Shown: positions 1 to 62,715, counted from the first letter of the stretch. The stretch: DNA of 64,000 nt from Nemertoderma westbladi (GCA_032718475.1 JAUCBJ010007253.1:124001-188000), one strand, 5' to 3'. Notes: generated by a model not told the origin, from the letters alone. Program-made: numbers and translations.

Positions 1-3000
1 GATATCCTTTTGATTTGGATAGTTTTTTGTATTAATATAAACTAAACTTCTTCTGAGTTGGCTATTTTGTTGTAGTAATAAAAACTAACCTGATATCTTT
101 TGATTTGGATAGTTTTTTGTAGTAATATAAACTAAACTTCTTCTGAGTTGGCTATTTTGTTGTAGTAATAAAAACTAACCTGGTATCCTTTTGATTTGGA
201 TAGTTTTTTGTATTAATATAAACTAAACTTCTTCTGAGTTGGCTATTTTATTGTAGTAATAAAAACTAACCTGATATCCTTTTGATTTGGATAGTTTTTT
301 GTATTAATATAAACTAAACTTCTTCTGAGTTGGTTATTTTGTTGTAGTAATAAAAACTAACCTGATATCTTTTGATTTGGATAGTTTTTTGTATTAATAT
401 AAACTAAACTTCTTCTGAGTTGGCTATTTTATTGTAGTAATAAAAACTAACCTGATATCCTTTTGATTTGGATAGTTTTTTGTATTAATATAAACTAAAC
501 TTCTTCTGAGTTGGTTATTTTGTTGTAGTAATAAAAACTAACCTGATATCTTTTGATTTGGATAGTTTTTTGTATTAATATAAACTAAACTTCTTCTGAG
601 TTGGTTATTTTGTTGTAGTAATAAAAACTAACCTGATATCTTTTGATTTGGATAGTTTTTTGTATTAATATAAACTAAACTTCTTCTGAGTTGGTTATTT
701 TGTTGTAGTAATAAAAACTAACCTGATATCTTTTGATTTGGATAGTTTTTTGTATTAATATAAACTAAACTTCTTCTGAGTTGGTTATTTTGTTGTAGTA
801 ATAAAAACTAACCTGATATCTTTTGATTTGGATAGTTTTTTGTATTAATATAAACTAAACTTCTTCTGAGTTGGTTATTTTGTTGTAGTAATAAAAACTA
901 ACCTGATATCTTTTGATTTGGATAGTTTTTTGTATTAATATAAACTAAACTTCTTCTGAGTTGGCTATTTCGTTGTAGTAATAAAAACTAACCTGATATC
1001 TTTTTGATTTGAATAGTTTTTTGTATTAATATAAACTAAACTTCTTCTGAGTTGGTTATTTTGTTGTAGTAATAAAAACTAACCTGATATCTTTTGATTT
1101 GGATAGTTTTTTGTATTAATATAAACTAAACTTCTTCTGAGTTGGTTATTTTGTTGTAGTAATAAAAACTAACCTGATATCTTTTGATTTGGATAGTTTT
1201 TTGTATTAATATAAACTAAACTTCTTCTGAGTTGGCTATTTCGTTGTAGTAATAAAAACTAACCTGATATCTTTTTGATTTGAATAGTTTTTTGTATTAA
1301 TATAAACTAAACTTCTTCTGAGTTGGCTATTTTATTGTAGTAATAAAAACTAACCTGGTATCCTTTTGATTTGGATAGTTTTTTGTATTAATATAAACTA
1401 AACTTCTTCTGAGTTGGCTATTTTATTGTAGTAATAAAAACTAACCTGATATCCTTTTGATTTGGATAGTTTTTTGTATTAATATAAACTAAACTTCTTC
1501 TGAGTTGGCTATTTTATTGTAGTAATAAAAACTAACCTGGTATCTTTTGATTTGGATAGTTTTTTGTATTAATATAAACTAAACTTCTTCTGAGTTGGCT
1601 ATTTCGTTGTAGTAATAAAAACTAACCTGGTATCTTTTGATTTGGATAGTTTTTTGTATTAATATAAACTAAACTTCTTCTGAGTTGGCTATTTTATTGT
1701 AGTAATAAAAACTAACCTGGTATCCTTTTGATTTGGATAGTTTTTTGTATTAATATAAACTAAACTTCTTCTGAGTTGGCTATTTTGTTGTAGTAATAAA
1801 AACTAACCTGATATCTTTTGATTTGGATAGTTTTTTGTAGTAATATAAACTAAACTTCTTTTGAGTTGGCTATTTTGTTGTAGTAATAAAAACTAACCTG
1901 GTATCCTTTTGATTTGGATAGTTTTTTGTATTAATATAAACTAAACTTCTTCTGAGTTGGCTATTTTATTGTAGTAATAAAAACTAACCTGGTATCCTTT
2001 TGATTTGGATAGTTTTTTGTATTAATATAAACTAAACTTCTTCTGAGTTGGCTATTTTATTGTAGTAATAAAAACTAACCTGGTATCCTTTTGATTTGGA
2101 TAGTTTTTTGTATTAATATAAACTAAACTTCTTCTGAGTTGGCTATTTTATTGTAGTAATAAAAACTAACCTGATATCCTTTTGATTTGGATAGTTTTTT
2201 GTATTAATATAAACTAAACTTCTTCTGAGTTGGCTATTTTATTGTAGTAATAAAAACTAACCTGGTATCCTTTTGATTTGGATAGTTTTTTGTATTAATA
2301 TAAACTAAACTTCTTCTGAGTTGGCTATTTCGTTGTAGTAATAAAAACTAACCTGGTATCTTTTGATTTGGATAGTTTTTTGTATTAATATAAACTAAAC
2401 TTCTTCTGAGTTGGCTATTTTATTGTAGTAATAAAAACTAACCTGATATCCTTTTGATTTGGATAGTTTTTTGTATTAATATAAACTAAACTTCTTCTGA
2501 GTTGGCTAATTTGTTGTAGTAATAAAAACTAACCTGGTATCTTTTGATTTGGATAGTTTTTTGTAGTAATATAAACTAAACTTCTTCTGAGTTGGTTATT
2601 TTGTTGTAGTAATAAAAACTAACCTGATATCTTTTGATTTGGATAGTTTTTTGTATTAATATAAACTAAACTTCTTTTGAGTTGGTTATTTCGTTGTAGT
2701 AATAAAAACTAACCTGATATCCTTTTGATTTGGATAGTTTTTTGTATTAATATAAACTAAACTTCTTCTGAGTTGGCTAATTTATTGTAGTAATAAAAAC
2801 TAACCTGATATCCTTTTGATTTGGATAGTTTTTTGTATTAATATAAACTAAACTTCTTTTGAGTTGGTTATTTTGTTGTAGTAATAAAAACTAACCTGGT
2901 ATCTTTTGATTTGGATAGTTTTTTGTATTAATATAAACTAAACTTCTTCTGAGTTGGCTATTTCGTTGTAGTAATAAAAACTAACCTGATATCCTTTTGA

Positions 3001-6000
3001 TTTGGATAGTTTTTTGTATTAATATAAACTAAACTTCTTCTGAGTTGGCTATTTTGTTGTAGTAATAAAAACTAACCTGATATCTTTTGATTTGGATAGT
3101 TTTTTGTAGTAATATAAACTAAACTTCTTTTGAGTTGGCTAATTTATTGTAGTAATAAAAACTAACCTGATATCCTTTTGATTTGGATAGTTTTTTGTAT
3201 TAATATAAACTAAACTTCTTTTGAGTTGGCTATTTCGTTGTAGTAATAAAAACTAACCTGATATCCTTTTGATTTGGATAGTTTTTTGTATTAATATAAA
3301 CTAAACTTCTTCTGAGTTGGCTATTTTGTTGTAGTAATAAAAACTAACCTGATATCTTTTGATTTGGATAGTTTTTTGTAGTAATATAAACTAAACTTCT
3401 TTTGAGTTGGCTAATTTATTGTAGTAATAAAAACTAACCTGATATCCTTTTGATTTGGATAGTTTTTTGTATTAATATAAACTAAACTTCTTCTGAGTTG
3501 GCTATTTTGTTGTAGTAATAAAAACTAACCTGATATCTTTTGATTTGGATAGTTTTTTGTATTAATATAAACTAAACTTCTTCTGAGTTGGCTATTTTGT
3601 TGTAGTAATAAAAACTAACCTGATATCTTTTGATTTGGATAGTTTTTTGTAGTAATATAAACTAAACTTCTTTTGAGTTGGCTATTTCGTTGTAGTAATA
3701 AAAACTAACCTGATATCTTTTGATTTGGATAGTTTTTTGTATTAATATAAACTAAACTTCTTCTGAGTTGGCTATTTTGTTGTAGTAATAAAAACTAACC
3801 TGGTATCCTTTTGATTTGGATAGTTTTTTGTATTAATATAAACTAAACTTCTTCTGAGTTGGCTATTTTATTGTAGTAATAAAAACTAACCTGATATCCT
3901 TTTGATTTGGATAGTTTTTTGTATTAATATAAACTAAACTTCTTCTGAGTTGGCTATTTTGTTGTAGTAATAAAAACTAACCTGATATCTTTTGATTTGG
4001 ATAGTTTTTTGTAGTAATATAAACTAAACTTCTTTTGAGTTGGCTATTTCGTTGTAGTAATAAAAACTAACCTGATATCTTTTGATTTGGATAGTTTTTT
4101 GTAGTAATATAAACTAAACTTCTTCTGAGTTGGCTATTTTGTTGTAGTAATAAAAACTAACCTGATATCTTTTGATTTGGATAGTTTTTTGTAGTAATAT
4201 AAACTAAACTTCTTTTGAGTTGGCTATTTCGTTGTAGTAATAAAAACTAACCTGATATCTTTTGATTTGGATAGTTTTTTGTAGTAATATAAACTAAACT
4301 TCTTTTGAGTTGGCTATTTCGTTGTAGTAATAAAAACTAACCTGGTATCTTTTGATTTGGATAGTTTTTTGTATTAATATAAACTAAACTTCTTCTGAGT
4401 TGGCTATTTTGTTGTAGTAATAAAAACTAACCTGGTATCCTTTTGATTTGGATAGTTTTTTGTATTAATATAAACTAAACTTCTTCTGAGTTGGCTATTT
4501 TATTGTAGTAATAAAAACTAACCTGATATCCTTTTGATTTGGATAGTTTTTTGTATTAATATAAACTAAACTTCTTCTGAGTTGGCTATTTTGTTGTAGT
4601 AATAAAAACTAACCTGATATCTTTTGATTTGGATAGTTTTTTGTAGTAATATAAACTAAACTTCTTTTGAGTTGGCTATTTCGTTGTAGTAATAAAAACT
4701 AACCTGATATCTTTTGATTTGGATAGTTTTTTGTATTAATATAAACTAAACTTCTTCTGAGTTGGCTATTTTGTTGTAGTAATAAAAACTAACCTGGTAT
4801 CCTTTTGATTTGGATAGTTTTTTGTAGTAATATAAACTAAACTTCTTCTGAGTTGGCTATTTTATTGTAGTAATAAAAACTAACCTGATATCCTTTTGAT
4901 TTGGATAGTTTTTTGTATTAATATAAACTAAACTTCTTCTGAGTTGGTTATTTTGTTGTAGTAATAAAAACTAACCTGATATCTTTTGATTTGGATAGTT
5001 TTTTGTATTAATATAAACTAAACTTCTTCTGAGTTGGTTATTTTGTTGTAGTAATAAAAACTAACCTGATATCTTTTGATTTGGATAGTTTTTTGTATTA
5101 ATATAAACTAAACTTCTTCTGAGTTGGTTATTTTGTTGTAGTAATAAAAACTAACCTGATATCTTTTTGATTTGAATAGTTTTTTGTATTAATATAAACT
5201 AAACTTCTTCTGAGTTGGCTATTTTATTGTAGTAATAAAAACTAACCTGGTATCCTTTTGATTTGGATAGTGTTTTGTATTAATATAAACTAAACTTCTT
5301 CTGAGTTGGCTATTTTATTGTAGTAATAAAAACTAACCTGGTATCCTTTTGATTTGGATAGTTTTTTGTATTAATATAAACTAAACTTCTTCTGAGTTGG
5401 CTATTTTGTTGTAGTAATAAAAACTAACCTGATATCTTTTGATTTGGATAGTTTTTTGTATTAATATAAACTAAACTTCTTCTGAGTTGGCTATTTTGTT
5501 GTAGTAATAAAAACTAACCTGGTATCCTTTTGATTTGGATAGTTTTTTGTATTAATATAAACTAAACTTCTTCTGAGTTGGCTATTTTATTGTAGTAATA
5601 AAAACTAACCTGATATCCTTTTGATTTGGATAGTTTTTTGTATTAATATAAACTAAACTTCTTTTGAGTTGGCTATTTTATTGTAGTAATAAAAACTAAC
5701 CTGATATCCTTTTGATTTGGATAGTTTTTTGTATTAATATAAACTAAACTTCTTCTGAGTTGGCTATTTTGTTGTAGTAATAAAAACTAACCTGATATCT
5801 TTTGATTTGGATAGTTTTTTGTATTAATATAAACTAAACTTCTTCTGAGTTGGCTATTTTATTGTAGTAATAAAAACTAACCTGGTATCCTTTTGATTTG
5901 GATAGTTTTTTGTATTAATATAAACTAAACTTCTTCTGAGTTGGCTATTTCGTTGTAGTAATAAAAACTAACCTGGTATCTTTTGATTTGGATAGTTTTT

Positions 6001-9000
6001 TGTATTAATATAAACTAAACTTCTTCTGAGTTGGCTATTTCGTTGTAGTAATAAAAACTAACCTGATATCTTTTGATTTGGATAGTTTTTTGTAGTAATA
6101 TAAACTAAACTTCTTCTGAGTTGGCTATTTTGTTGTAGTAATAAAAACTAACCTGATATCCTTTTGATTTGGATAGTTTTTTGTATTAATATAAACTAAA
6201 CTTCTTCTGAGTTGGCTATTTCGTTGTAGTAATAAAAACTAACCTGATATCCTTTTGATTTGGATAGTTTTTTGTATTAATATAAACTAAACTTCTTCTG
6301 AGTTGGCTATTTTGTTGTAGTAATAAAAACTAACCTGATATCCTTTTGATTTGGATAGTTTTTTGTATTAATATAAACTAAACTTCTTCTGAGTTGGCTA
6401 TTTTGTTGTAGTAATAAAAACTAACCTGATATCTTTTGATTTGGATAGTTTTTTGTAGTAATATAAACTAAACTTCTTTTGAGTTGGCTATTTCGTTGTA
6501 GTAATAAAAACTAACCTGATATCTTTTGATTTGGATAGTTTTTTGTATTAATATAAACTAAACTTCTTCTGAGTTGGCTATTTCGTTGTAGTAATAAAAA
6601 CTAACCTGATATCCTTTTGATTTGGATAGTTTTTTGTATTAATATAAACTAAACTTCTTCTGAGTTGGCTATTTTATTGTAGTAATAAAAACTAACCTGA
6701 TATCCTTTTGATTTGGATAGTTTTTTGTATTAATATAAACTAAACTTCTTCTGAGTTGGCTATTTTGTTGTAGTAATAAAAACTAACCTGATATCTTTTG
6801 ATTTGGATAGTTTTTTGTAGTAATATAAACTAAACTTCTTTTGAGTTGGCTATTTCGTTGTAGTAATAAAAACTAACCTGATATCTTTTGATTTGGATAG
6901 TTTTTTGTATTAATATAAACTAAACTTCTTCTGAGTTGGCTATTTTATTGTAGTAATAAAAACTAACCTGATATCTTTTGATTTGGATAGTTTTTTGTAG
7001 TAATATAAACTAAACTTCTTTTGAGTTGGCTATTTCGTTGTAGTAATAAAAACTAACCTGATATCTTTTGATTTGGATAGTTTTTTGTATTAATATAAAC
7101 TAAACTTCTTCTGAGTTGGCTATTTTGTTGTAGTAATAAAAACTAACCTGATATCCTTTTGATTTGGATAGTTTTTTGTATTAATATAAACTAAACTTCT
7201 TCTGAGTTGGCTATTTTGTTGTAGTAATAAAAACTAACCTGATATCTTTTGATTTGGATAGTTTTTTGTAGTAATATAAACTAAACTTCTTTTGAGTTGG
7301 CTATTTCGTTGTAGTAATAAAAACTAACCTGATATCTTTTGATTTGGATAGTTTTTTGTATTAATATAAACTAAACTTCTTCTGAGTTGGCTATTTTATT
7401 GTAGTAATAAAAACTAACCTGATATCCTTTTGATTTGGATAGTTTTTTGTAGTAATATAAACTAAACTTCTTCTGAGTTGGCTATTTTGTTATAGTAATA
7501 AAAACTAACCTGATATCTTTTGATTTGGATAGTTTTTTGTAGTAATATAAACTAAACTTCTTCTGAGTTGGCTATTTTGTTATAGTAATAAAAACTAACC
7601 TGATATCTTTTGATTTGGATAGTTTTTTGTAGTAATATAAACTAAACTTCTTCTGAGTTGGCTATTTTGTTATAGTAATAAAAACTAACCTGATATCTTT
7701 TGATTTGGATAGTTTTTTGTATTAATATAAACTAAACTTCTTCTGAGTTGGCTATTTTGTTGTAGTAATAAAAACTAACCTGATATCTTTTGATTTGGAT
7801 AGTTTTTTGTAGTAATATAAACTAAACTTCTTCTGAGTTGGCTATTTTGTTATAGTAATAAAAACTAACCTGATATCTTTTGATTTGGATAGTTTTTTGT
7901 AGTAATATAAACTAAACTTCTTCTGAGTTGGCTATTTTGTTATAGTAATAAAAACTAACCTGATATCTTTTGATTTGGATAGTTTTTTGTAGTAATATAA
8001 ACTAAACTTCTTCTGAGTTGGCTATTTTGTTATAGTAATAAAAACTAACCTGATATCTTTTGATTTGGATAGTTTTTTGTAGTAATATAAACTAAACTTC
8101 TTCTGAGTTGGCTATTTTGTTATAGTAATAAAAACTAACCTGATATCTTTTGATTTGGATAGTTTTTTGTATTAATATAAACTAAACTTCTTCTGAGTTG
8201 GTTATTTTGTTGTAGTAATAAAAACTAACCTGATATCCTTTTGATTTGGATAGTTTTTTGTAGTAATATAAACTAAACTTCTTCTGAGTTGGCTATTTTG
8301 TTATAGTAATAAAAACTAACCTGATATCTTTTGATTTGGATAGTTTTTTGTAGTAATATAAACTAAACTTCTTCTGAGTTGGCTATTTTGTTATAGTAAT
8401 AAAAACTAACCTGATATCTTTTGATTTGGATAGTTTTTTGTATTAATATAAACTAAACTTCTTCTGAGTTGGTTATTTTGTTGTAGTAATAAAAACTAAC
8501 CTGATATCCTTTTGATTTGGATAGTTTTTTGTATTAATATAAACTAAACTTCTTCTGAGTTGGTTATTTTGTTGTAGTAATAAAAACTAACCTGATATCC
8601 TTTTGATTTGGATAGTTTTTTGTAGTAATATAAACTAAACTTCTTCTGAGTTGGCTATTTTGTTATAGTAATAAAAACTAACCTGATATCTTTTGATTTG
8701 GATAGTTTTTTGTATTAATATAAACTAAACTTCTTCTGAGTTGGCTAATTTGTTGTAGTAATAAAAACTAACCTGGTATCCTTTTGATTTGGATAGTTTT
8801 TTGTATTAATATAAACTAAACTTCTTCTGAGTTGGTTATTTTGTTGTAGTAATAAAAACTAACCTGATATCCTTTTGATTTGGATAGTTTTTTGTATTAA
8901 TATAAACTAAACTTCTTCTGAGTTGGTTATTTTGTTGTAGTAATAAAAACTAACCTGGTATCCTTTTGATTTGGATAGTTTTTTGTATTAATATAAACTA

Positions 9001-12000
9001 AACTTCTTCTGAGTTGGTTATTTTGTTGTAGTAATAAAAACTAACCTGGTATCCTTTTGATTTGGATAGTTTTTTGTAGTAATATAAACTAAACTTCTTC
9101 TGAGTTGGCTATTTTGTTATAGTAATAAAAACTAACCTGATATCTTTTGATTTGGATAGTTTTTTGTATTAATATAAACTAAACTTCTTTTGAGTTGGTT
9201 ATTTCGTTGTAGTAATAAAAACTAACCTGATATCTTTTGATTTGTATAGTTTTTTGTATTAATATAAACTAAACTTCTTTTGAGTTGGCTATTTTGTTGT
9301 AGTAATAAAAACTAACCTGATATCCTTTTGATTTGGATAGTTTTTTGTATTAATATAAACTAAACTTCTTTTGAGTTGGCTATTTTGTTGTAGTAATAAA
9401 AACTAACCTGGTATCCTTTTGATTTGGATAGTTTTTTGTATTAATATAAACTAAACTTCTTCTGAGTTGGCTATTTTGTTGTAGTAATAAAAACTAACCT
9501 GGTATCCTTTTGATTTGGATAGTTTTTTGTATTAATATAAACTAAACTTCTTCTGAGTTGGCTATTTTGTTGTAGTAATAAAAACTAACCTGGTATCCTT
9601 TTGATTTGGATAGTTTTTTGTATTAATATAAACTAAACTTCTTCTGAGTTGGCTATTTTATTTTAGTAATAAAAACTAACCTGATATCCTTTTGATTTGT
9701 ATAGTTTTTTGTATTAATATAAACTAAACTTCTTCTGAGTTGGCTATTTTGTTGTAGTAATAAAAACTAACCTGGTATCCTTTTGATTTGGATAGTTTTT
9801 TGTATTAATATAAACTAAACTTCTTCTGAGTTGGCTATTTTGTTGTAGTAATAAAAACTAACCTGGTATCCTTTTGATTTGGATAGTTTTTTGTATTAAT
9901 ATAAACTAAACTTCTTCTGAGTTGGCTATTTTGTTGTAGTAATAAAAACTAACCTGGTATCCTTTTGATTTGGATAGTTTTTTGTATTAATATAAACTAA
10001 ACTTCTTCTGAGTTGGCTATTTTGTTGTAGTAATAAAAACTAACCTGGTATCCTTTTGATTTGGATAGTTTTTTGTATTAATATAAACTAAACTTCTTCT
10101 GAGTTGGCTATTTTATTTTAGTAATAAAAACTAACCTGATATCCTTTTGATTTGTATAGTTTTTTGTATTAATATAAACTAAACTTCTTCTGAGTTGGCT
10201 ATTTTGTTGTAGTAATAAAAACTAACCTGGTATCCTTTTGATTTGGATAGTTTTTTGTATTAATATAAACTAAACTTCTTCTGAGTTGGCTATTTTGTTG
10301 TAGTAATAAAAACTAACCTGGTATCCTTTTGATTTGGATAGTTTTTTGTATTAATATAAACTAAACTTCTTCTGAGTTGGCTATTTTGTTGTAGTAATAA
10401 AAACTAACCTGGTATCCTTTTGATTTGGATAGTTTTTTGTATTAATATAAACTAAACTTCTTCTGAGTTGGCTATTTTGTTGTAGTAATAAAAACTAACC
10501 TGGTATCCTTTTGATTTGGATAGTTTTTTGTATTAATATAAACTAAACTTCTTCTGAGTTGGCTATTTTGTTGTAGTAATAAAAACTAACCTGGTATCCT
10601 TTTGATTTGGATAGTTTTTTGTATTAATATAAACTAAACTTCTTCTGAGTTGGCTATTTTGTTGTAGTAATAAAAACTAACCTGGTATCCTTTTGATTTG
10701 GATAGTTTTTTGTATTAATATAAACTAAACTTCTTCTGAGTTGGCTATTTTATTTTAGTAATAAAAACTAACCTGATATCCTTTTGATTTGTATAGTTTT
10801 TTGTATTAATATAAACTAAACTTCTTCTGAGTTGGCTATTTTGTTGTAGTAATAAAAACTAACCTGGTATCCTTTTGATTTGGATAGTTTTTTGTATTAA
10901 TATAAACTAAACTTCTTCTGAGTTGGCTATTTTGTTGTAGTAATAAAAACTAACCTGGTATCCTTTTGATTTGGATAGTTTTTTGTATTAATATAAACTA
11001 AACTTCTTCTGAGTTGGCTATTTTGTTGTAGTAATAAAAACTAACCTGGTATCCTTTTGATTTGGATAGTTTTTTGTATTAATATAAACTAAACTTCTTT
11101 TGAGTTGGTTATTTTATTGTAGTAATAAAAACTAACCTGATATCTTTTGATTTGGATAGTTTTTTGTAGTAATATAAACTAAACTTCTTCTGAGTTGGCT
11201 ATTTTGTTATAGTAATAAAAACTAACCTGATATCTTTTGATTTGGATAGTTTTTTGTATTAATATAAACTAAACTTCTTCTGAGTTGGCTAATTTGTTGT
11301 AGTAATAAAAACTAACCTGGTATCCTTTTGATTTGGATAGTTTTTTGTATTAATATAAACTAAACTTCTTCTGAGTTGGTTATTTTGTTGTAGTAATAAA
11401 AACTAACCTGATATCCTTTTGATTTGGATAGTTTTTTGTATTAATATAAACTAAACTTCTTCTGAGTTGGTTATTTTGTTGTAGTAATAAAAACTAACCT
11501 GGTATCCTTTTGATTTGGATAGTTTTTTGTATTAATATAAACTAAACTTCTTCTGAGTTGGTTATTTTGTTGTAGTAATAAAAACTAACCTGGTATCCTT
11601 TTGATTTGGATAGTTTTTTGTAGTAATATAAACTAAACTTCTTCTGAGTTGGCTATTTTGTTATAGTAATAAAAACTAACCTGATATCTTTTGATTTGGA
11701 TAGTTTTTTGTATTAATATAAACTAAACTTCTTTTGAGTTGGTTATTTCGTTGTAGTAATAAAAACTAACCTGATATCTTTTGATTTGTATAGTTTTTTG
11801 TATTAATATAAACTAAACTTCTTTTGAGTTGGCTATTTTGTTGTAGTAATAAAAACTAACCTGATATCCTTTTGATTTGGATAGTTTTTTGTATTAATAT
11901 AAACTAAACTTCTTTTGAGTTGGCTATTTTGTTGTAGTAATAAAAACTAACCTGGTATCCTTTTGATTTGGATAGTTTTTTGTATTAATATAAACTAAAC

Positions 12001-36000: not shown

Positions 36001-39000
36001 ATAAAAACTAACCTGATATCTTTTGATTTGGATAGTTTTTTGTAGTTATATAAACTAAACTTCTTCTGGGTTGGCTATTTTGTTGTAGTAATAAAAACTA
36101 ACCTGATATCTTTTGATTTGGATAGTTTTTTGTATTAATATAAACTAAACTTCTTTTGAGTTGGCTAATTTATTGTAGTAATAAAAACTAACCTGATATC
36201 CTTTTGATTTGGATAGTTTTTTGTATTAATATAAACTAAACTTCTTCTGAGTTGGCTATTTTGTTGTAGTAATAAAAACTAACCTGATATCTTTTGATTT
36301 GGATAGTTTTTTGTAGTAATATAAACTAAACTTCTTTTGAGTTGGCTAATTTATTGTAGTAATAAAAACTAACCTGATATCCTTTTGATTTGGATAGTTT
36401 TTTGTATTAATATAAACTAAACTTCTTCTGAGTTGGCTATTTTGTTGTAGTAATAAAAACTAACCTGATATCTTTTGATTTGGATAGTTTTTTGTAGTAA
36501 TATAAACTAAACTTCTTTTGAGTTGGCTATTTCGTTGTAGTAATAAAAACTAACCTGATATCTTTTGATTTGGATAGTTTTTTGTATTAATATAAACTAA
36601 ACTTCTTCTGAGTTGGCTATTTTGTTGTAGTAATAAAAACTAACCTGGTATCCTTTTGATTTGGATAGTTTTTTGTATTAATATAAACTAAACTTCTTCT
36701 GAGTTGGCTATTTTATTGTAGTAATAAAAACTAACCTGATATCCTTTTGATTTGGATAGTTTTTTGTATTAATATAAACTAAACTTCTTCTGAGTTGGCT
36801 ATTTTGTTGTAGTAATAAAAACTAACCTGATATCTTTTGATTTGGATAGTTTTTTGTAGTAATATAAACTAAACTTCTTTTGAGTTGGCTATTTCGTTGT
36901 AGTAATAAAAACTAACCTGATATCTTTTGATTTGGATAGTTTTTTGTATTAATATAAACTAAACTTCTTCTGAGTTGGCTATTTTGTTGTAGTAATAAAA
37001 ACTAACCTGGTATCCTTTTGATTTGGATAGTTTTTTGTATTAATATAAACTAAACTTCTTCTGAGTTGGCTATTTTATTGTAGTAATAAAAACTAACCTG
37101 ATATCCTTTTGATTTGGATAGTTTTTTGTATTAATATAAACTAAACTTCTTCTGAGTTGGTTATTTTGTTGTAGTAATAAAAACTAACCTGATATCTTTT
37201 GATTTGGATAGTTTTTTGTATTAATATAAACTAAACTTCTTCTGAGTTGGTTATTTTGTTGTAGTAATAAAAACTAACCTGATATCTTTTGATTTGGATA
37301 GTTTTTTGTATTAATATAAACTAAACTTCTTCTGAGTTGGTTATTTTGTTGTAGTAATAAAAACTAACCTGATATCTTTTGATTTGGATAGTTTTTTGTA
37401 TTAATATAAACTAAACTTCTTCTGAGTTGGTTATTTTGTTATAGTAATAAAAACTAACCTGATATCTTTTGATTTGGATAGTTTTTTGTATTAATATAAA
37501 CTAAACTTCTTCTGAGTTGGCTATTTCGTTGTAGTAATAAAAACTAACCTGATATCTTTTTGATTTGAATAGTTTTTTGTATTAATATAAACTAAACTTC
37601 TTCTGAGTTGGCTATTTCGTTGTAGTAATAAAAACTAACCTGATATCTTTTGATTTGGATAGTTTTTTGTATTAATATAAACTAAACTTCTTCTGAGTTG
37701 GCTATTTTATTGTAGTAATAAAAACTAACCTGATATCCTTTTGATTTGGATAGTTTTTTGTATTAATATAAACTAAACTTCTTCTGAGTTGGCTATTTTA
37801 TTGTAGTAATAAAAACTAACCTGGTATCCTTTTGATTTGGATAGTGTTTTGTATTAATATAAACTAAACTTCTTCTGAGTTGGCTATTTTATTGTAGTAA
37901 TAAAAACTAACCTGGTATCCTTTTGATTTGGATAGTTTTTTGTATTAATATAAACTAAACTTCTTTTGAGTTGGCTATTTTGTTGTAGTAATAAAAACTA
38001 ACCTGGTATCCTTTTGATTTGGATAGTTTTTTGTATTAATATAAACTAAACTTCTTCTGAGTTGGCTATTTTATTGTAGTAATAAAAACTAACCTGATAT
38101 CCTTTTGATTTGGATAGTTTTTTGTATTAATATAAACTAAACTTCTTCTGAGTTGGCTATTTTATTGTAGTAATAAAAACTAACCTGATATCCTTTTGAT
38201 TTGGATAGTTTTTTGTATTAATATAAACTAAACTTCTTCTGAGTTGGCTATTTTGTTGTAGTAATAAAAACTAACCTGATATCTTTTGATTTGGATAGTT
38301 TTTTGTATTAATATAAACTAAACTTCTTCTGAGTTGGCTATTTTATTGTAGTAATAAAAACTAACCTGGTATCCTTTTGATTTGGATAGTTTTTTGTATT
38401 AATATAAACTAAACTTCTTCTGAGTTGGCTATTTCGTTGTAGTAATAAAAACTAACCTGGTATCTTTTGATTTGGATAGTTTTTTGTATTAATATAAACT
38501 AAACTTCTTCTGAGTTGGCTATTTTGTTGTAGTAATAAAAACTAACCTGATATCCTTTTGATTTGGATAGTTTTTTGTATTAATATAAACTAAACTTCTT
38601 CTGAGTTGGCTATTTTGTTGTAGTAATAAAAACTAACCTGATATCTTTTGATTTGGATAGTTTTTTGTAGTAATATAAACTAAACTTCTTTTGAGTTGGC
38701 TATTTCGTTGTAGTAATAAAAACTAACCTGATATCTTTTGATTTGGATAGTTTTTTGTATTAATATAAACTAAACTTCTTCTGAGTTGGCTATTTTATTG
38801 TAGTAATAAAAACTAACCTGATATCCTTTTGATTTGGATAGTTTTTTGTATTAATATAAACTAAACTTCTTCTGAGTTGGCTATTTTGTTGTAGTAATAA
38901 AAACTAACCTGATATCTTTTGATTTGGATAGTTTTTTGTAGTAATATAAACTAAACTTCTTTTGAGTTGGCTATTTCGTTGTAGTAATAAAAACTAACCT

Positions 39001-42000
39001 GATATCTTTTGATTTGGATAGTTTTTTGTATTAATATAAACTAAACTTCTTCTGAGTTGGCTATTTTATTGTAGTAATAAAAACTAACCTGATATCCTTT
39101 TGATTTGGATAGTTTTTTGTATTAATATAAACTAAACTTCTTCTGAGTTGGCTATTTTGTTGTAGTAATAAAAACTAACCTGATATCTTTTGATTTGGAT
39201 AGTTTTTTGTAGTAATATAAACTAAACTTCTTTTGAGTTGGCTATTTCGTTGTAGTAATAAAAACTAACCTGATATCTTTTGATTTGGATAGTTTTTTGT
39301 ATTAATATAAACTAAACTTCTTCTGAGTTGGCTATTTTATTGTAGTAATAAAAACTAACCTGGTATCCTTTTGATTTGGATAGTTTTTTGTATTAATATA
39401 AACTAAACTTCTTCTGAGTTGGCTATTTTATTGTAGTAATAAAAACTAACCTGATATCTTTTGATTTGGATAGTTTTTTGTAGTAATATAAACTAAACTT
39501 CTTTTGAGTTGGCTATTTCGTTGTAGTAATATAAACTAAACTTCTTCTGAGTTGGCTATTTTGTTGTAGTAATAAAAACTAACCTGATATCCTTTTGATT
39601 TGGATAGTTTTTTGTATTAATATAAACTAAACTTCTTCTGAGTTGGCTATTTTGTTGTAGTAATAAAAACTAACCTGATATCTTTTGATTTGGATAGTTT
39701 TTTGTAGTAATATAAACTAAACTTCTTTTGAGTTGGCTATTTCGTTGTAGTAATAAAAACTAACCTGATATCTTTTGATTTGGATAGTTTTTTGTATTAA
39801 TATAAACTAAACTTCTTCTGAGTTGGCTATTTTGTTGTAGTAATAAAAACTAACCTGGTATCTTTTGATTTGAATAGTTTTTTGTATTAATATAAACTAA
39901 ACTTCTTCTGAGTTGGCTATTTTGTTGTAGTAATATAAACTAAACTTCTTCTGAGTTGGCTAATTTGTTGTAGTAATAAAAACTAACCTGGTATCTTTTG
40001 ATTTGGATAGTTTTTTGTATTAATATAAACTAAACTTCTTCTGAGTTGGCTATTTTGTTGTAGTAATAAAAACTAACCTGGTATCTTTTGATTTGTATAG
40101 TTTTTTGTAGTAATATAAACTAAACTTCTTCTGAGTTGGCTATTTTGTTGTAGTAATAAAAACTAACCTGGTATCTTTTGATTTGGATAGTTTTTTGTAG
40201 TAATATAAACTAAACTTCTTCTGAGTTGGTTATTTCGTTGTAGTAATAAAAACTAACCTGGTATCTTTTGATTTGGATAGTTTTTTGTAGTAATATAAAC
40301 TAAACTTCTTCTGAGTTGGTTATTTCGTTGTAGTAATAAAAACTAACCTGGTATCTTTTGATTTGGATAGTTTTTTGTATTAATATAAACTAAACTTCTT
40401 CTGAGTTGGTTATTTCGTTGTAGTAATAAAAACTAACCTGGTATCTTTTGATTTGGATAGTTTTTTGTAGTAATATAAACTAAACTTCTTCTGAGTTGGT
40501 TATTTCGTTGTAGTAATAAAAACTAACCTGGTATCTTTTGATTTGGATAGTTTTTTGTATTAATATAAACTAAACTTCTTCTGAGTTGGCTATTTTGTTG
40601 TAGTAATAAAAACTAACCTGATATCTTTTGATTTGTATAGTTTTTTGTATTAATATAAACTAAACTTCTTCTGAGTTGGCTATTTTGTTGTAGTAATAAA
40701 AACTAACCTGATATCTTTTGATTTGGATAGTTTTTTGTATTAATATAAACTAAACTTCTTCTGAGTTGGCTATTTTGTTGTAGTAATAAAAACTAACCTG
40801 ATATCTTTTGATTTGGATAGTTTTTTGTAGTAATATAAACTAAACTTCTTTTGAGTTGGCTATTTCGTTGTAGTAATAAAAACTAACCTGATATCTTTTG
40901 ATTTGGATAGTTTTTTGTATTAATATAAACTAAACTTCTTCTGAGTTGGCTATTTTATTGTAGTAATAAAAACTAACCTGATATCCTTTTGATTTGGATA
41001 GTTTTTTGTATTAATATAAACTAAACTTCTTCTGAGTTGGCTATTTTGTTGTAGTAATAAAAACTAACCTGATATCTTTTGATTTGGATAGTTTTTTGTA
41101 GTAATATAAACTAAACTTCTTTTGAGTTGGCTATTTCGTTGTAGTAATAAAAACTAACCTGATATCTTTTGATTTGGATAGTTTTTTGTATTAATATAAA
41201 CTAAACTTCTTCTGAGTTGGCTATTTTATTGTAGTAATAAAAACTAACCTGGTATCCTTTTGATTTGGATAGTTTTTTGTATTAATATAAACTAAACTTC
41301 TTCTGAGTTGGCTATTTTGTTGTAGTAATAAAAACTAACCTGATATCCTTTTGATTTGGATAGTTTTTTGTATTAATATAAACTAAACTTCTTCTGAGTT
41401 GGCTATTTTGTTGTAGTAATAAAAACTAACCTGATATCTTTTGATTTGGATAGTTTTTTGTAGTAATATAAACTAACCTGGTATCCTTTTGATTTGGATA
41501 GTTTTTTGTATTAATATAAACTAAACTTCTTTTGAGTTGGCTATTTTATTGTAGTAATAAAAACTAACCTGGTATCCTTTTGATTTGGATAGTTTTTTGT
41601 ATTAATATAAACTAAACTTCTTCTGAGTTGGCTATTTTGTTGTAGTAATAAAAACTAACCTGATATCCTTTTGATTTGGATAGTTTTTTGTATTAATATA
41701 AACTAAACTTCTTCTGAGTTGGCTATTTTGTTGTAGTAATAAAAACTAACCTGATATCTTTTGATTTGGATAGTTTTTTGTAGTAATATAAACTAACCTG
41801 GTATCCTTTTGATTTGGATAGTTTTTTGTATTAATATAAACTAAACTTCTTTTGAGTTGGCTATTTTATTGTAGTAATAAAAACTAACCTGGTATCCTTT
41901 TGATTTGGATAGTTTTTTGTATTAATATAAACTAAACTTCTTTTGAGTTGGCTATTTTGTTGTAGTAATAAAAACTAACCTGATATCCTTTTGATTTGGA

Positions 42001-45000
42001 TAGTTTTTTGTATTAATATAAACTAAACTTCTTCTGAGTTGGCTATTTTGTTGTAGTAATAAAAACTAACCTGATATCTTTTGATTTGGATAGTTTTTTG
42101 TAGTAATATAAACTAAACTTCTTTTGAGTTGGCTATTTCGTTGTAGTAATAAAAACTAACCTGATATCTTTTGATTTGGATAGTTTTTTGTATTAATATA
42201 AACTAAACTTCTTCTGAGTTGGCTATTTTGTTGTAGTAATAAAAACTAACCTGGTATCTTTTGATTTGAATAGTTTTTTGTATTAATATAAACTAAACTT
42301 CTTCTGAGTTGGCTATTTTGTTGTAGTAATATAAACTAAACTTCTTCTGAGTTGGCTAATTTGTTGTAGTAATAAAAACTAACCTGGTATCTTTTGATTT
42401 GGATAGTTTTTTGTATTAATATAAACTAAACTTCTTCTGAGTTGGCTATTTTGTTGTAGTAATAAAAACTAACCTGGTATCTTTTGATTTGTATAGTTTT
42501 TTGTAGTAATATAAACTAAACTTCTTCTGAGTTGGCTATTTTGTTGTAGTAATAAAAACTAACCTGGTATCTTTTGATTTGGATAGTTTTTTGTAGTAAT
42601 ATAAACTAAACTTCTTCTGAGTTGGTTATTTCGTTGTAGTAATAAAAACTAACCTGGTATCTTTTGATTTGGATAGTTTTTTGTAGTAATATAAACTAAA
42701 CTTCTTCTGAGTTGGTTATTTCGTTGTAGTAATAAAAACTAACCTGGTATCTTTTGATTTGGATAGTTTTTTGTATTAATATAAACTAAACTTCTTCTGA
42801 GTTGGTTATTTCGTTGTAGTAATAAAAACTAACCTGGTATCTTTTGATTTGGATAGTTTTTTGTAGTAATATAAACTAAACTTCTTCTGAGTTGGTTATT
42901 TCGTTGTAGTAATAAAAACTAACCTGGTATCTTTTGATTTGGATAGTTTTTTGTATTAATATAAACTAAACTTCTTCTGAGTTGGCTATTTTGTTGTAGT
43001 AATAAAAACTAACCTGATATCTTTTGATTTGTATAGTTTTTTGTATTAATATAAACTAAACTTCTTCTGAGTTGGCTATTTTGTTGTAGTAATAAAAACT
43101 AACCTGATATCTTTTGATTTGTATAGTTTTTTGTATTAATATAAACTAAACTTCTTCTGAGTTGGCTATTTTGTTGTAGTAATAAAAACTAACCTGATAT
43201 CCTTTTGATTTGGATAGTTTTTTGTATTAATATAAACTAAACTTCTTCTGAGTTGGCTATTTTGTTGTAGTAATAAAAACTAACCTGATATCTTTTGATT
43301 TGTATAGTTTTTTGTATTAATATAAACTAAACTTCTTCTGAGTTGGCTATTTTGTTGTAGTAATAAAAACTAACCTGATATCTTTTGATTTGTATAGTTT
43401 TTTGTATTAATATAAACTAAACTTCTTCTGAGTTGGTTATTTCGTTGTAGTAATAAAAACTAACCTGGTATCTTTTGATTTGGATAGTTTTTTGTATTAA
43501 TATAAACTAAACTTCTTCTGAGTTGGCTATTTTGTTGTAGTAATAAAAACTAACCTGATATCCTTTTGATTTGGATAGTTTTTTGTATTAATATAAACTA
43601 AACTTCTTCTGAGTTGGCTATTTCGTTGTAGTAATAAAAACTAACCTGATATCTTTTGATTTGGATAGTTTTTTGTATTAATATAAACTAAACTTCTTCT
43701 GAGTTGGCTATTTTATTGTAGTAATAAAAACTAACCTGATATCCTTTTGATTTGGATAGTTTTTTGTATTAATATAAACTAAACTTCTTCTGAGTTGGTT
43801 ATTTTGTTGTAGTAATAAAAACTAACCTGATATCTTTTGATTTGGATAGTTTTTTGTATTAATATAAACTAAACTTCTTCTGAGTTGGCTATTTTGTTGT
43901 AGTAATAAAAACTAACCTGATATCCTTTTGATTTGGATAGTTTTTTGTATTAATATAAACTAAACTTCTTCTGAGTTGGCTATTTTGTTGTAGTAATAAA
44001 AACTAACCTGATATCTTTTGATTTGGATAGTTTTTTGTATTAATATAAACTAAACTTCTTCTGAGTTGGCTATTTTGTTGTAGTAATAAAAACTAACCTG
44101 ATATCCTTTTGATTTGGATAGTTTTTTGTATTAATATAAACTAAACTTCTTCTGAGTTGGCTATTTTGTTGTAGTAATAAAAACTAACCTGATATCTTTT
44201 GATTTGTATAGTTTTTTGTATTAATATAAACTAAACTTCTTCTGAGTTGGCTATTTTGTTGTAGTAATAAAAACTAACCTGATGTCTTTTGATTTGAATA
44301 GTTTTTTGTAGTAATATAAACTAAACTTCTTTTGAGTTGGCTATTTCGTTGTAGTAATAAAAACTAACCTGATATCTTTTGATTTGGATAGTTTTTTGTA
44401 GTAATATAAACTAAACTTCTTCTGAGTTGGCTATTTTATTGTAGTAATAAAAACGAACCTGATATCTTTTGATTTGGATAGTTTTTTGTAGTAATATAAA
44501 CTAAACTTCTTCTGAGTTGGCTATTTTGTTGTAGTAATAAAAACTAACCTGATGTCTTTTGATTTGAATAGTTTTTTGTAGTAATATAAACTAAACTTCT
44601 TTTGAGTTGGCTATTTCGTTGTAGTAATAAAAACTAACCTGATATCTTTTGATTTGAATAGTTTTTTGTAGTAATATAAACTAAACTTCTTCTGAGTTGG
44701 CTATTTTGTTGTAGTAATAAAAACTAACCTGATATCTTTTGATTTGGATAGTTTTTTGTAGTAATATAAACTAAACTTCTTTTGAGTTGGCTATTTCGTT
44801 GTAGTAATAAAAACTAACCTGATATCTTTTGATTTGAATAGTTTTTTGTAGTAATATAAACTAAACTTCTTCTGAGTTGGTTATTTCGTTGTAGTAATAA
44901 AAACTAACCTGATATCTTTTGATTTGGATAGTTTTTTGTATTAATATAAACTAAACTTCTTTTGAGTTGGCTATTTTGTTGTAGTAATAAAAACTAACCT

Positions 45001-45751
45001 GATATCTTTTGATTTGGATAGTTTTTTGTAGTAATATAAACTAAACTTCTTCTGAGTTGGCTATTTTGTTGTAGTAATAAAAACTAACCTGATATCTTTT
45101 GATTTGGATAGTTTTTTGTAGTAATATAAACTAAACTTCTTTTGAGTTGGCTATTTCGTTGTAGTAATAAAAACTAACCTGATATCTTTTGATTTGAATA
45201 GTTTTTTGTAGTAATATAAACTAAACTTCTTCTGAGTTGGTTATTTCGTTGTAGTAATAAAAACTAACCTGATATCTTTTGATTTGGATAGTTTTTTGTA
45301 TTAATATAAACTAAACTTCTTCTGAGTTGGCTATTTTGTTGTAGTAATAAAAACTAACCTGATATCTTTTGATTTGAATAGTTTTTTGTAGTAATATAAA
45401 CTAAACTTCTTCTGAGTTGGTTATTTCGTTGTAGTAATAAAAACTAACCTGATATCTTTTGATTTGGATAGTTTTTTGTATTAATATAAACTAAACTTCT
45501 TTTGAGTTGGCTATTTTGTTGTAGTAATAAAAACTAACCTGATATCTTTTGATTTGGATAGTTTTTTGTAGTAATATAAACTAAACTTCTTCTGAGTTGG
45601 CTATTTTGTTGTAGTAATAAAAACTAACCTGATATCTTTTGATTTGGATAGTTTTTTGTATTAATATAAACTAAACTTCTTTTGAGTTGGCTATTTCGTT
45701 GTAGTAATAAAAACTAACCTGATATCTTTTGATTTGATTAGTTTTTTGTAG

Positions 45752-45890
45752 TAATATAAACTAACTTGTATCTTGGGAGTTTGGTAGTGTTTTGTAGTAA
45801 TATAAACCAACCTTATATCTTCTGAGTTCGGTAGTGTTTTGTATTAATATAAACTAACTTGTATCTTGAGAGTTTGGTAGTGTTTTGTAG
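45752..45890. repeat. Isolated internal copy of the edge-type C-D-E monomers (46+47+46 bp) inside the AB array
   Basis: taatataaactaacttgtatcttgggagtttggtagtgttttgtag, then ...accaaccttatatcttctgagttcggtagtg..., then ...cttgagagtttggtagtg...; matches the block starting at 48820. Confidence 0.95.
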
Positions 45891-48772
45891 TAATAAAAAC
45901 TAACCTGATATCTTTTGATTTGATTAGTTTTTTGTAGTAATATAAACTAAACTTCTTCTGAGTTGGTTATTTTGTTGTAGTAATAAAAACTAACCTGGTA
46001 TCTTTTGATTTGGATAGTTTTTTGTATTAATATAAACTAAACTTCTTCTGAGTTGGCTATTTTGTTGTAGTAATAAAAACTAACCTGATGTCTTTTGATT
46101 TGAATAGTTTTTTGTAGTAATATAAACTAAACTTCTTTTGAGTTGGCTATTTCGTTGTAGTAATAAAAACTAACCTGATATCTTTTGATTTGAATAGTTT
46201 TTTGTAGTAATATAAACTAAACTTCTTCTGAGTTGGCTATTTTGTTGTAGTAATAAAAACTAACCTGATATCTTTTGATTTGGATAGTTTTTTGTAGTAA
46301 TATAAACTAAACTTCTTTTGAGTTGGCTATTTCGTTGTAGTAATAAAAACTAACCTGATATCTTTTGATTTGAATAGTTTTTTGTATTAATATAAACTAA
46401 ACTTCTTCTGAGTTGGCTATTTTGTTGTAGTAATAAAAACTAACCTGATGTCTTTTGATTTGAATAGTTTTTTGTAGTAATATAAACTAAACTTCTTTTG
46501 AGTTGGCTATTTCGTTGTAGTAATAAAAACTAACCTGATATCTTTTGATTTGAATAGTTTTTTGTAGTAATATAAACTAAACTTCTTCTGAGTTGGTTAT
46601 TTTGTTGTAGTAATAAAAACTAACCTGGTATCTTTTGATTTGGATAGTTTTTTGTATTAATATAAACTAAACTTCTTCTGAGTTGGCTATTTTATTGTAG
46701 TAATAAAAACTAACCTGATATCTTTTGATTTGAATAGTTTTTTGTAGTAATATAAACTAAACTTCTTCTGAGTTGGTTATTTTGTTGTAGTAATAAAAAC
46801 TAACCTGGTATCTTTTGATTTGGATAGTTTTTTGTATTAATATAAACTAAACTTCTTCTGAGTTGGCTATTTTGTTGTAGTAATAAAAACTAACCTGATG
46901 TCTTTTGATTTGAATAGTTTTTTGTAGTAATATAAACTAAACTTCTTCTGAGTTGGCTATTTTGTTGTAGTAATAAAAACTAACCTGATGTCTTTTGATT
47001 TGAATAGTTTTTTGTAGTAATATAAACTAAACTTCTTTTGAGTTGGCTATTTCGTTGTAGTAATAAAAACTAACCTGATATCTTTTGATTTGAATAGTTT
47101 TTTGTAGTAATATAAACTAAACTTCTTCTGAGTTGGTTATTTTGTTGTAGTAATAAAAACTAACCTGGTATCTTTTGATTTGGATAGTTTTTTGTATTAA
47201 TATAAACTAAACTTCTTCTGAGTTGGCTATTTTATTGTAGTAATAAAAACTAACCTGATATCTTTTGATTTGAATAGTTTTTTGTAGTAATATAAACTAA
47301 ACTTCTTCTGAGTTGGTTATTTTGTTGTAGTAATAAAAACTAACCTGGTATCTTTTGATTTGGATAGTTTTTTGTATTAATATAAACTAAACTTCTTTTG
47401 AGTTGGCTATTTCGTTGTAGTAATAAAAACTAACCTGATATCTTTTGATTTGAATAGTTTTTTGTAGTAATATAAACTAAACTTCTTCTGAGTTGGTTAT
47501 TTTGTTGTAGTAATAAAAACTAACCTGGTATCTTTTGATTTGGATAGTTTTTTGTATTAATATAAACTAAACTTCTTCTGAGTTGGCTATTTTGTTGTAG
47601 TAATAAAAACTAACCTGATGTCTTTTGATTTGAATAGTTTTTTGTAGTAATATAAACTAAACTTCTTTTGAGTTGGCTATTTCGTTGTAGTAATAAAAAC
47701 TAACCTGATATCTTTTGATTTGAATAGTTTTTTGTAGTAATATAAACTAAACTTCTTCTGAGTTGGCTATTTTGTTGTAGTAATAAAATCTAACCTGATA
47801 TCTTTTGATTTGGATAGTTTTTTGTAGTAATATAAACTAAACTTCTTTTGAGTTGGCTATTTCGTTGTAGTAATAAAAACTAACCTGATATCTTTTGATT
47901 TGAATAGTTTTTTGTATTAATATAAACTAAACTTCTTCTGAGTTGGCTATTTCGTTGTAGTAATAAAAACTAACCTGATATCTTTTGATTTGGATAGTTT
48001 TTTGTATTAATATAAACTAAACTTCTTCTGAGTTGGCTATTTTATTGTAGTAATAAAAACTAACCTGATATCCTTTTGATTTGGATAGTTTTTTGTATTA
48101 ATATAAACTAAACTTCTTCTGAGTTGGTTATTTTGTTGTAGTAATAAAAACTAACCTGATATCTTTTGATTTGGATAGTTTTTTGTATTAATATAAACTA
48201 AACTTCTTCTGAGTTGGCTATTTTGTTGTAGTAATAAAAACTAACCTGATATCCTTTTGATTTGGATAGTTTTTTGTATTAATATAAACTAAACTTCTTC
48301 TGAGTTGGCTATTTTGTTGTAGTAATAAAAACTAACCTGATATCTTTTGATTTGGATAGTTTTTTGTATTAATATAAACTAAACTTCTTCTGAGTTGGCT
48401 ATTTTGTTGTAGTAATAAAAACTAACCTGATATCTTTTGATTTGAATAGTTTTTTGTAGTAATATAAACTAAACTTCTTCTGAGTTGGTTATTTCGTTGT
48501 AGTAATAAAAACTAACCTGATATCTTTTGATTTGGATAGTTTTTTGTATTAATATAAACTAAACTTCTTTTGAGTTGGCTATTTTGTTGTAGTAATAAAA
48601 ACTAACCTGATATCTTTTGATTTGGATAGTTTTTTGTAGTAATATAAACTAAACTTCTTCTGAGTTGGCTATTTTGTTGTAGTAATAAAAACTAACCTGA
48701 TATCTTTTGATTTGGATAGTTTTTTGTATTAATATAAACTAAACTTCTTTTGAGTTGGCTATTTCGTTGTAG

Positions 48773-49289
48773 TAATAAAAACTAACCTGATATCTTTTGA
48801 TTTGATTAGTTTTTTGTAGTAATATAAACTAACTTGTATCTTGGGAGTTTGGTAGTGTTTTGTAGTAATATAAACCAACCTTATATCTTCTGAGTTCGGT
48901 AGTGTTTTGTATTAATATAAACTAACTTGTATCTTGAGAGTTTGGTAGTGTTTTGTAGTAATAAAAACTAACCTGATATCTTTTGATTTGATTAGTTTTT
49001 TGTAGTAATATAAACTAACTTGTATCTTGGGAGTTTGGTAGTGTTTTGTAGTAATATAAACCAACCTTATATCTTCTGAGTTCGGTAGTGTTTTGTATTA
49101 ATATAAACTAACTTGTATCTTGAGAGTTTGGTAGTGTTTTGTAGTAATAAAAACTAACCTGATATCTTTTGATTTGATTAGTTTTTTGTAGTAATATAAA
49201 CTAACTTGTATCTTGGGAGTTTGGTAGTGTTTTGTAGTAATAAAAACCAACCTTATATCTTCTGAGTTTGGTAGTGTTTTGTAGTAATA
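48773..49289. repeat. Edge domain of the satellite: 186-bp tetramer (A47-C46-D47-E46), about 2.75 copies, the last monomer overlapping the FOXRED2-A exon
   Basis: The marker gattag recurs at 48804, 48990 and 49176 (186-bp spacing). Monomers C, D and E are absent from the bulk array except at 45752. Confidence 0.93.
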
Positions 49290-49453
49290 GAATACTGGGT
49301 GTAGAAAATTAGAATCGTGAGCGAACTCAGGTCCAGCAACGACGGGTGTTCCTGCTTGTAACAGATCTATCATTTTGCTTGCTTCTCCAGTAAAGTTGGC
49401 TCCGTATTCGAAAGATACGAGAAATACTGGTTGTTCGCTCGTTACAGAATAAC
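49252..49453 (-). CDS. FOXRED2: FOXRED2-like paralog A, coding exon 3 (GYSVTSEQPVFLVSFEYGANFTG...AHDSNFLHPVFYYYKTLPNSEDIR)
   Basis: Acceptor ttatgttattag| ends at 49454 and donor AAG|gttggt starts at 49251. The 202-bp exon is in frame with exon 2 (phase-1 join). Motifs EYG.NF.G and SNFLHPV.YYY..LP match my recollection of vertebrate FOXRED2 (MEYGRNFSG...[15 protein letters not shown]). Confidence 0.9.
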
Positions 49454-49879
49454 CTAATAACATAAGATATATTTAATATGTTAATTGATACAGGTTGTCA
49501 AATTCCGTTCTCACAATCCTCACTTTGTAACTCACAATCGATGCGTATTTACTCTATGTAGATTTTGTGGGAGCTGCAGTGCAGACACAACTGCCTGACA
49601 GTGGCGCAGCCAGAGTTTGTTACCTGTAGTAGTTTGCGACTATTTCTCGTCGAGTTATATAAAATAATTTAATAAGACTACATCTATATAAGACATCGAA
49701 TCGCGGGCAGCTAATCATCTCGGGCTAATATATTAATTAGGGTTCTATGTCTGATTTGGTTCTTTTGAGGTAGTTTTTTCTCCAATATCGGTCAGCCCAT
49801 TTGGCTGCTAATTTAGTATCCTATTTAGTTTATATTATATTATAAAATAAAAATAAAATATTACTTGACTTCATTATAT

Positions 49880-50115
49880 AATTATTTATATATTATCTAT
49901 AATTATTCTCAATCTGCTTCTATTTATAGCTATTCTACCCGATCGGCAGCCCGAGGTGACTACTATATCCAAACTGTAAGACTCTCTTCATCTCAACGCT
50001 CTTTGAGCTTCCAGGGCCCTCAAATTTGGAATATCATCCCTTCGGACATTAGGTCTTCAAAAACAAAAACAATCTTTTCTAAAAAATTTTAACAATATCT
50101 GTTAGCCTCTATCTG
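49880..50115 (+). mobile_element. Decayed 3' end of a CR1/L2-type LINE ORF2 (in intron 2 of paralog A)
   Basis: Translation YSYSTRSAARGDYYIQTVRLSSSQRSLSFQGPQIWNIIPSDIRSSKTKTIFSKKF*QYLL resembles the typical C-terminus of invertebrate CR1/L2 ORF2 (xSTR...FxGPxIWNxLPxxIR...FKKxLKxYLL). It contains an in-frame stop. Confidence 0.7.
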
Positions 50116-50390
50116 ATTAACTCTATTTTATTTTTATTTGTTTTTTTTTTTGTTAATTTTTTTTCCCTGAAATTAAAATGTAATTAATTATTAATAATTA
50201 ATTAATTAAATTATAATCCACAAAATGTAAAATTTATCAATATTGTATGTGTTAGTTTGCCTGCGTTGGTGCATGGACCTGACCCCTCGTGTGTTATCGG
50301 TTGCTTGTGTGATGAGAATCTGCCTCCCAATAATAAAAAACGTCAGCAAGTTCTAAATTGGCAAAATTCCGAATCTAGTATAAACTGAAC

Positions 50391-50815: not shown

Positions 50816-50872
50816 TACTATACCACCCCAAACAAACGCCGAGTTAATTATATCAGTTCATCTCATACTAAC

Positions 50873-62706: not shown

Positions 62707-62715
62707 GGTAATGGT

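Follow-up and report, generated by a model that had tools for sequence, protein, structure and literature searches.

Gene A, its paralog and the surrounding repeats

The window analysed here, a 64,000-nt stretch of the Nemertoderma westbladi genome, contains a FOXRED2-like gene on the minus strand (gene A), its paralog on the plus strand (paralog B) and five tandem arrays. Eight sequencing runs were listed, none of them recorded as RNA, and contigs of four (X1-X4) were aligned to a stretch that took in 150 nt of the array adjoining gene A. X4 (sample S3) is labelled 'DNA?' and was read as RNA from its spliced joints and empty introns alone. The features of gene A, of the adjoining array and of paralog B, with the evidence used for them, are as follows.

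51140..52440, minus strand: gene A exon 1, 1301 nt, ATG at 52440, FOXRED2-like flavoprotein (open frame, homology, X4 contigs)
50983..51139, minus strand: gene A intron 1, 157 nt, phase 2 (X4 joint 50982-51140; ends CT..AC on the plus strand)
50873..50982, minus strand: gene A exon 2, 110 nt, donor nine-mer CAG|GTTAGT (gene model, X4)
49454..50872, minus strand: gene A intron 2, 1419 nt, phase 1 (X4 joint omitting 1419 nt; depth)
49252..49453, minus strand: gene A exon 3, 202 nt, ending in ...SNFLHPVFYYYKTLPNSEDI plus AG, phase 2 (X4 record 24, 49250-49449, no differences)
49246..49254, minus strand: used splice donor AAG|GTTGGT, cut between 49252 and 49251 (the sole GT where X4 record 24 exits the window)
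49243..49289, minus strand: monomer 0, E type, the last 38 nt of exon 3 and the first 9 nt of intron 3, from which the array derives (alignment)
48778..49289, minus strand: edge block of 11 monomers, a 186-bp four-unit repeat (E, C, A-variant, C) with the most exon-like units (monomer list)
45710..45942, minus strand: isolated relic of the edge block within the array (A-variant, C, E, C, A-variant; monomer list)
1..48777, minus strand: bulk satellite, alternating A and B units forming a 90/91-bp dimer
57327..62434, plus strand: paralog B, 478 open codons, exons 57327-58183, 61374-61820 and 62304-62434 (open frame)

The three-exon model of gene A comprises 537 open codons and ends in phase 2. 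The joints in the X4 contigs agreed exactly with introns 1 and 2, and the X4 depth was 200-1000 on the exons but dropped to 0 over the array bin and the greater part of intron 2. Exon 1 was 39-48% identical to FOXRED2-like proteins of molluscs, echinoderms, cnidarians, vertebrates and others among the matches listed. The homolog set used throughout consisted of the 120 listed of 2830 matches to exon 1 (E about 1e-116 to 1e-102). The homology covers the FAD-binding region, and the columns of the SNFLHPV motif were kept in 111-118 of the 120 listed homologs. The best full-length match among those listed reached 48% identity and the best representatives 44-52%; no close relative was found in the protein searches, in which exon 3 alone gave 1 match among 16 candidates. 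No FOXRED2 exon map was found in print. A tree of 70 of the 120 homologs, in which the paralog B row was misframed, placed gene A on a long branch (1.1) beside divergent oyster proteins; this placement is likely an artefact and was not used.

Two further observations concern intron 2. At about 50390-50850 it holds a dispersed repeat whose summed contig depth was 2-8 x 10^5 in the DNA runs and in the thousands in X4, and of which there was no second copy within the window. At about 49473-49583, near exon 3, one X3 contig was devoid of about 110 nt of the intron, which probably represents a deletion allele.

At the protein level paralog B is 66% identical to gene A, and the positions of introns 1 and 2 are common to both genes; the paralog B exon that matches exon 3 of gene A lies beyond the window. 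The two genes are arranged head to head and are 95% identical over 615 nt of 5' coding sequence (52362-51748 on the minus strand and 57416-58021 on the plus strand) and 73% identical over a later 273-nt stretch, a pattern that suggests recent gene conversion between the inverted copies. In the open-frame model paralog B has an additional phase-2 intron (58184-61373), absent from gene A, with a weak-looking donor (AA|GTTCGT), and this intron consists mostly of a 30-bp array. Unrelated 30-bp, 32-bp and 15/47-bp arrays occupy 58218-61138 and 62484-63182 in the paralog B introns, two of these arrays beginning 35 and 50 nt after a donor. A GC-rich 33-bp array (71.6 copies, 52760-55121) separates the divergent genes, about 320 nt upstream of the gene A start. 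None of these four other arrays in the window matched exon sequence. The region is prone to local repeats: 86% of the window is taken up by the five arrays, of which two in paralog B lie near donors.

Structure and coding origin of the array

Tandem Repeats Finder (TRF) reported positions 1-49254 as a single array with a period of 90, 544.5 copies and 96% matches, and splitting the minus strand of 1-49289 from position 49289 yielded 1089 whole monomers with 54 distinct sequences. These counts bear out the initial annotation, which had described 1..49289 as a satellite array of more than 49 kb amplified about 1000-fold. The array is open at the left end of the window, continuing at base 1, so that its total length is a lower bound (>49 kb). 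With this length, the regular period of 90 and 96% matches it qualifies as a satellite with a higher-order repeat; its GC content is ~25%. The monomers comprise 540 A-type (47/48 bp), 538 B-type (43 bp), 7 C-type (46 bp) and 4 junction-like E-type (47 bp) units. The E and C types were confined to 49289-48825 and 45895-45757, that is, to the first ten units and one relic block. The mean distance to the type reference was 1.8 differences for A units and 0.9 for B units.

No strong long higher-order period was detected in the array, the top autocorrelation being 0.30 at lag 8. The longest exact repeat at any lag was 30 monomers, and the frequencies of the 54 distinct monomers changed along the array. 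Outside the array, no match to its unit longer than 10 nt was present within the window. A coding role of the array was rejected, as the longest frame in all six frames was 63 codons despite the 90-bp dimer. The array contains no GATC site, which could lead to its under-sampling in a restriction-based library.

The first monomer (49289-49243) is composed, as initially quoted, of the last 38 nt of exon 3 and the first 9 nt of the intron. The A unit quoted alongside it indeed differs from it at 7 of 47 positions: in an ungapped comparison 40 of 47 bases matched, whereas 5000 shuffles gave a mean of 14.7 and a maximum of 26. This unit is a real variant, but its designation as the bulk unit has to be corrected, because it represents just 92 of the 1089 monomers, and A-type units differ from the first monomer at 8.7 positions on average (range 7-11). 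B-type units show 12.4 differences from it on average with gaps counted (8 mismatches and 4 gaps between B and monomer 0; 7 mismatches and 4 gaps between A and B), and the monomer comparison agrees with the earlier statement that the B unit keeps AACTCAGAAGA. Every non-E type carries GTTAG or a similar sequence at the position of the GTTGG of the E type. A and B share changes against monomer 0, and A and C have GTTAG in place of its GTTGG, so that monomer 0 does not represent the ancestral unit in each of its bases.

The initial annotation had considered the coding sequence ancestral and the satellite derived, on the basis of the human FOXRED2 motif. In place of that motif we judged conservation on the 120 listed database homologs. 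In the columns of monomer 0, Tyr526 was found in 115, Tyr527 in 82, Tyr528 in 112, Lys in 45, Thr in 25, Leu531 in 78 and Pro532 in 109 of these proteins, and the first 21 nt of the unit thus encode residues conserved across animals. Codons 8-12 (NSEDI) are poorly conserved (Asn in 4, Ser in 2, Glu in 25, Asp in 33 and Ile in 4 of the 120), and the polarity therefore rests on the first 7 codons. With a profile built from 118 of the 120 homologs, these 7 codons scored 24.1 bits in monomer 0, 14.7 or 2.9 bits in the common A units and 9.3 bits in the B units; shuffling the 38 nt 200,000 times never yielded as much as 24.1 bits. The Pro codon was retained in 11 of the 1089 monomers, all of them of the E and C types. 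The conservation of YYY..LP, the retention of Pro by the edge types alone and the location of the exon-like units at the edge identify the exon as the source. Judged from these sequence comparisons, the polarity is from exon to satellite, with the coding sequence as the source, in line with the original proposal.

Transcripts and the position of intron 3

X4 record 24 (1457 nt) aligned from its own base 490 at window position 49250 through exons 3 and 2 and part of exon 1, with 2 differences from the window in all. This one contig of one run exits the window at the first donor and continues with 489 unaligned nt. Such a spliced contig supports the giant intron that had been postulated for the array. 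The listed homologs have a median of 98 residues after the donor point, so that 489 nt can hold a FOXRED2-like C-terminus, and we infer that these nucleotides contain the downstream exon, located beyond the array.

CAG|GTTAGT, the nine-mer of the real intron 2 donor, occurs 535 times in the array. No use of these pseudo-donors was seen among the X4 contigs, which drop rare forms; in this one contig set of one run the authentic first donor is the main one. The 20 nt preceding the 543 AGGTT sites of the array contained 42% pyrimidines on average and 45% at most, compared with 60-80% for the four real acceptors in the window. Judging by this composition, the array units would be poor acceptors.

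The summed contig depth on the array bin, which is not a copy number, was 50,219 in X1 and 48,382 in X2, a run from another sample, with values in the tens on the exons. In X3, which comes from the same sample as X2, it was 808 on the array bin and about 12 on the exons. The 60-fold gap between two runs of one sample indicates that the depth is library-dependent and no measure of array length. At the same time, the values for X1 and X2 support the presence of the array at high copy in two DNA samples. Among the DNA contigs listed, none bridges the unique exon and the array by 31 letters on each side, and two end at 49254. The RNA sample and the assembly sample probably differ.

To place intron 3 relative to the introns of related genes, we used a set of 113 short proteins, mostly from unnamed sources, 112 of them obtained in one search and the remaining one, P0121, in another. 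The HP motif is present in 87, whereas the other 26, which mostly cover the following exon by itself, lack it. Among the 87, 29 proteins reach the HH..ED motif and 58 break off. The residue two after the Pro position was Gly (51), Ser (5) or Cys (2) in all 58 broken-off proteins, compared with 4 of 118 full-length proteins having one of these residues there. Since Gly, Ser and Cys are the residues of N+GT codons, the 58 proteins look like single exons read into an intron. This looks like a widespread phase-1 intron, situated 13 nt upstream of the phase-2 donor of gene A, and by the same indirect comparison the position of intron 3 looks lineage-specific and unused in the related genes examined. 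The intron 2 position was read through in 49 of 50 short proteins (loose pattern). For intron 1, 20 short proteins were long enough: 1 was continuous and 17 started, by eye, about 8-10 residues before EE(F/V/Y)P; the inspection covered 18 of these 20, and none started at the intron 1 position. Gaps in the full-length homologs gave no information on where exons end. From the short proteins, each of the three introns of gene A would lie at a position of its own, and the lineage of the gene seems to have replaced common introns by new ones. The ends of introns 1 and 2 share 5 and 6 bases, respectively.

Origin of the array and comparison with known systems

In the explanation that we consider likely, each of the more than 1000 units of the array is a diverged copy of the 47-bp junction between exon 3 and intron 3 in an expressed FOXRED2-like gene; the array probably arose by tandem duplication and unequal exchange and would be spliced out as one intron of more than 49 kb from the first donor. 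Intron 3 would have been gained before the repeat began, and the first step would have been a local 47-bp tandem duplication of the junction, via slippage or unequal exchange. The monomer may then have diverged into the four-unit repeat, followed by a take-over by the A+B dimer. The dimer would have been homogenised recently with the edge being spared, as described for amphioxus mirages (PMC3087553). The silence of the 535 downstream donors could reflect both a preference for the most upstream donor, which has been tested for human F7 (PMC1557585), and units that would offer no good acceptor. No function of the array was indicated, and it may be a tolerated passenger without a function of its own.

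Alternatively, the duplication itself could have created the intron: a coding segment holding AG|GT would have been duplicated in an intron-less stretch, the first copy becoming the donor and the last copy the acceptor, and the new intron would have grown as a satellite. We regard this as possible but improbable. The position of intron 3 looks new, given the 58 of 58 broken-off short proteins and a phase-2 donor 13 nt further on, and X4 record 24 matches the window for two bases past the donor, so that the next exon likely starts with GT. The seven bases that follow GT in the A units also bear a faint resemblance to the seven bases of exon just ahead of monomer 0. Natural cases of the tandem genomic duplication model have been described that likewise combine AG|GT within a duplicated coding segment with a new-looking intron position; the known cases have 2-4 copies, and the model needs an acceptor from the last copy (PMC4974935, PMC3443670). 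However, introns 1 and 2 also appear to occupy new positions, are common to paralog B and are not tandem repeats, which implies that the gene has acquired introns in other ways as well. GT likewise opens the exon following intron 2 (4 shared bases), the transcript agrees with just 2 of the 9 post-donor bases while AGGT itself is present in the segment, and the array units appear to be poor acceptors. Any likeness between the A units and the exon sequence upstream is weak. There is a similarly small chance that the same 47 bases gave rise, at this one locus, to both a lineage-specific intron and a satellite, with splicing still proceeding cleanly across more than 500 donors that could be used.

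It is unlikely that the coding origin is right and the giant intron is nevertheless unreal or not tolerated, the assembly being over-long or the long allele broken, with the RNA derived from animals with short arrays. The RNA and the assembly probably come from different samples, the array depth in X3 is far below that in X2 from the same sample, the far end of the array lies outside the window, and unspliced read-through of exon 3 would stop 50 codons past the donor. On the other hand, 54 distinct monomers of varying frequency and a longest exact repeat of 30 monomers are unlike a collapsed or duplicated assembly, the array depth is very high in two DNA samples and all three exons of gene A are intact. 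Finally, the arrival of a satellite from elsewhere, resembling the exon end by chance or partly exonized, is close to refuted, for although unrelated tandem arrays abound at the locus (the window has four others) and YYYKKL is still legible in the common A units, a foreign unit would need to encode YYY..LP in frame directly after SNFLHPV (0 of 200,000 shuffles), the conserved Pro is lost from the bulk units and the gradient of likeness runs outward from the exon.

The array, taken as a derivative of the exon 3/intron 3 junction, appears by its tested features to work like the junction-spanning minisatellites: its first unit spans the exon-intron border and includes part of the exon, tandem copies lie in the adjacent intron, and the source is coding. 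The initial annotation understated the precedents in finding them only for parts of the phenomenon, since donor-spanning repeats form a class that has a name and in which hundreds of cases are known (PMC1557585, PMC3087553, PMC12954441). A donor-spanning repeat is a known kind of element; what is unusual here is the scale, the legible history and the new-looking intron position. In the part of the literature that was covered, there was no junction-derived array of such size with a coding source, and the scale exceeds the published maxima that we found (427 units; 23.6 kb). The satellites in the introns of Drosophila Y genes are simple repeats and are not known to derive from the exons of the gene itself. 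The gigantic introns of these genes are alike in being large, satellite-made introns of expressed genes, and they reach megabases (PMC6508621, PMC11207136).

In the exon stuttering described for chicken dot chromosomes (Hron et al. 2026, PMC12954441), 236 introns carry 1-44 exon copies over 112-23,555 bp, and length variation between animals is a main feature. As in gene A, copies of the exon edge with the splice site run into the next intron, the source lies at the exon border, the exon part is of similar length (median 36 bp vs 38 here) and further local arrays occur in neighbouring introns (PMC12954441). In contrast to those arrays of GC-rich bird chromosomes (PMC12954441), the array described here has at least 1089 units, more than 49 kb, 25% GC and a regular two-unit higher-order repeat. 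Human donor-spanning units are known from F7 intron 7 (37 bp x 5-9), CBS intron 13 (15-20 units), 6-16 (25 pseudo-sites), LMNB2 (100 bp x 10-15) and PDGF (81 bp x 16-18) (PMC1557585). In these genes (5-26 units; PMC1557585) the donor likewise recurs downstream while splicing takes the most upstream copy; however, they have 40- to 200-fold fewer copies, and most pseudo-donors of the present array differ from the used donor and equal the real intron 2 donor of the gene. The VNTR in ABCA7 intron 18 resembles the array in having a donor in every unit and long alleles, but its unit starts at GT without coding bases, and its largest allele is 10,678 bp (about 427 units); long alleles are associated with lower expression and more exon skipping (PMC5954066). 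The amphioxus mirages in Adh3, BflGb6 and BflGb9 are likewise invertebrate tandem copies of an exon-intron boundary with normal splicing, and their edge units escape homogenisation; the BflGb6 mirage has 3-6 units vs more than 1000 here, and mirages were proposed by the authors as a route to new intron positions (PMC3087553).

The origins of satellites are rarely traceable, as the source is usually lost, whereas in gene A selection on the protein has kept the source in place. Since the edge of the array keeps older unit types, the passage from unique sequence through monomer and four-unit repeat to the homogeneous dimer becomes readable and datable. The array extends exon stuttering from GC-rich bird chromosomes to an AT-rich genome and to the scale of a satellite, and the finding of a junction repeat in an AT-rich genome argues against high GC as a requirement. 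The locus also offers a natural test of first-donor choice, in which 535 copies of a donor used elsewhere in the gene appear to be skipped. Should the far end of intron 3 also prove to consist of repeat sequence, the locus would provide one of the rare direct examples of an intron gained through tandem duplication.
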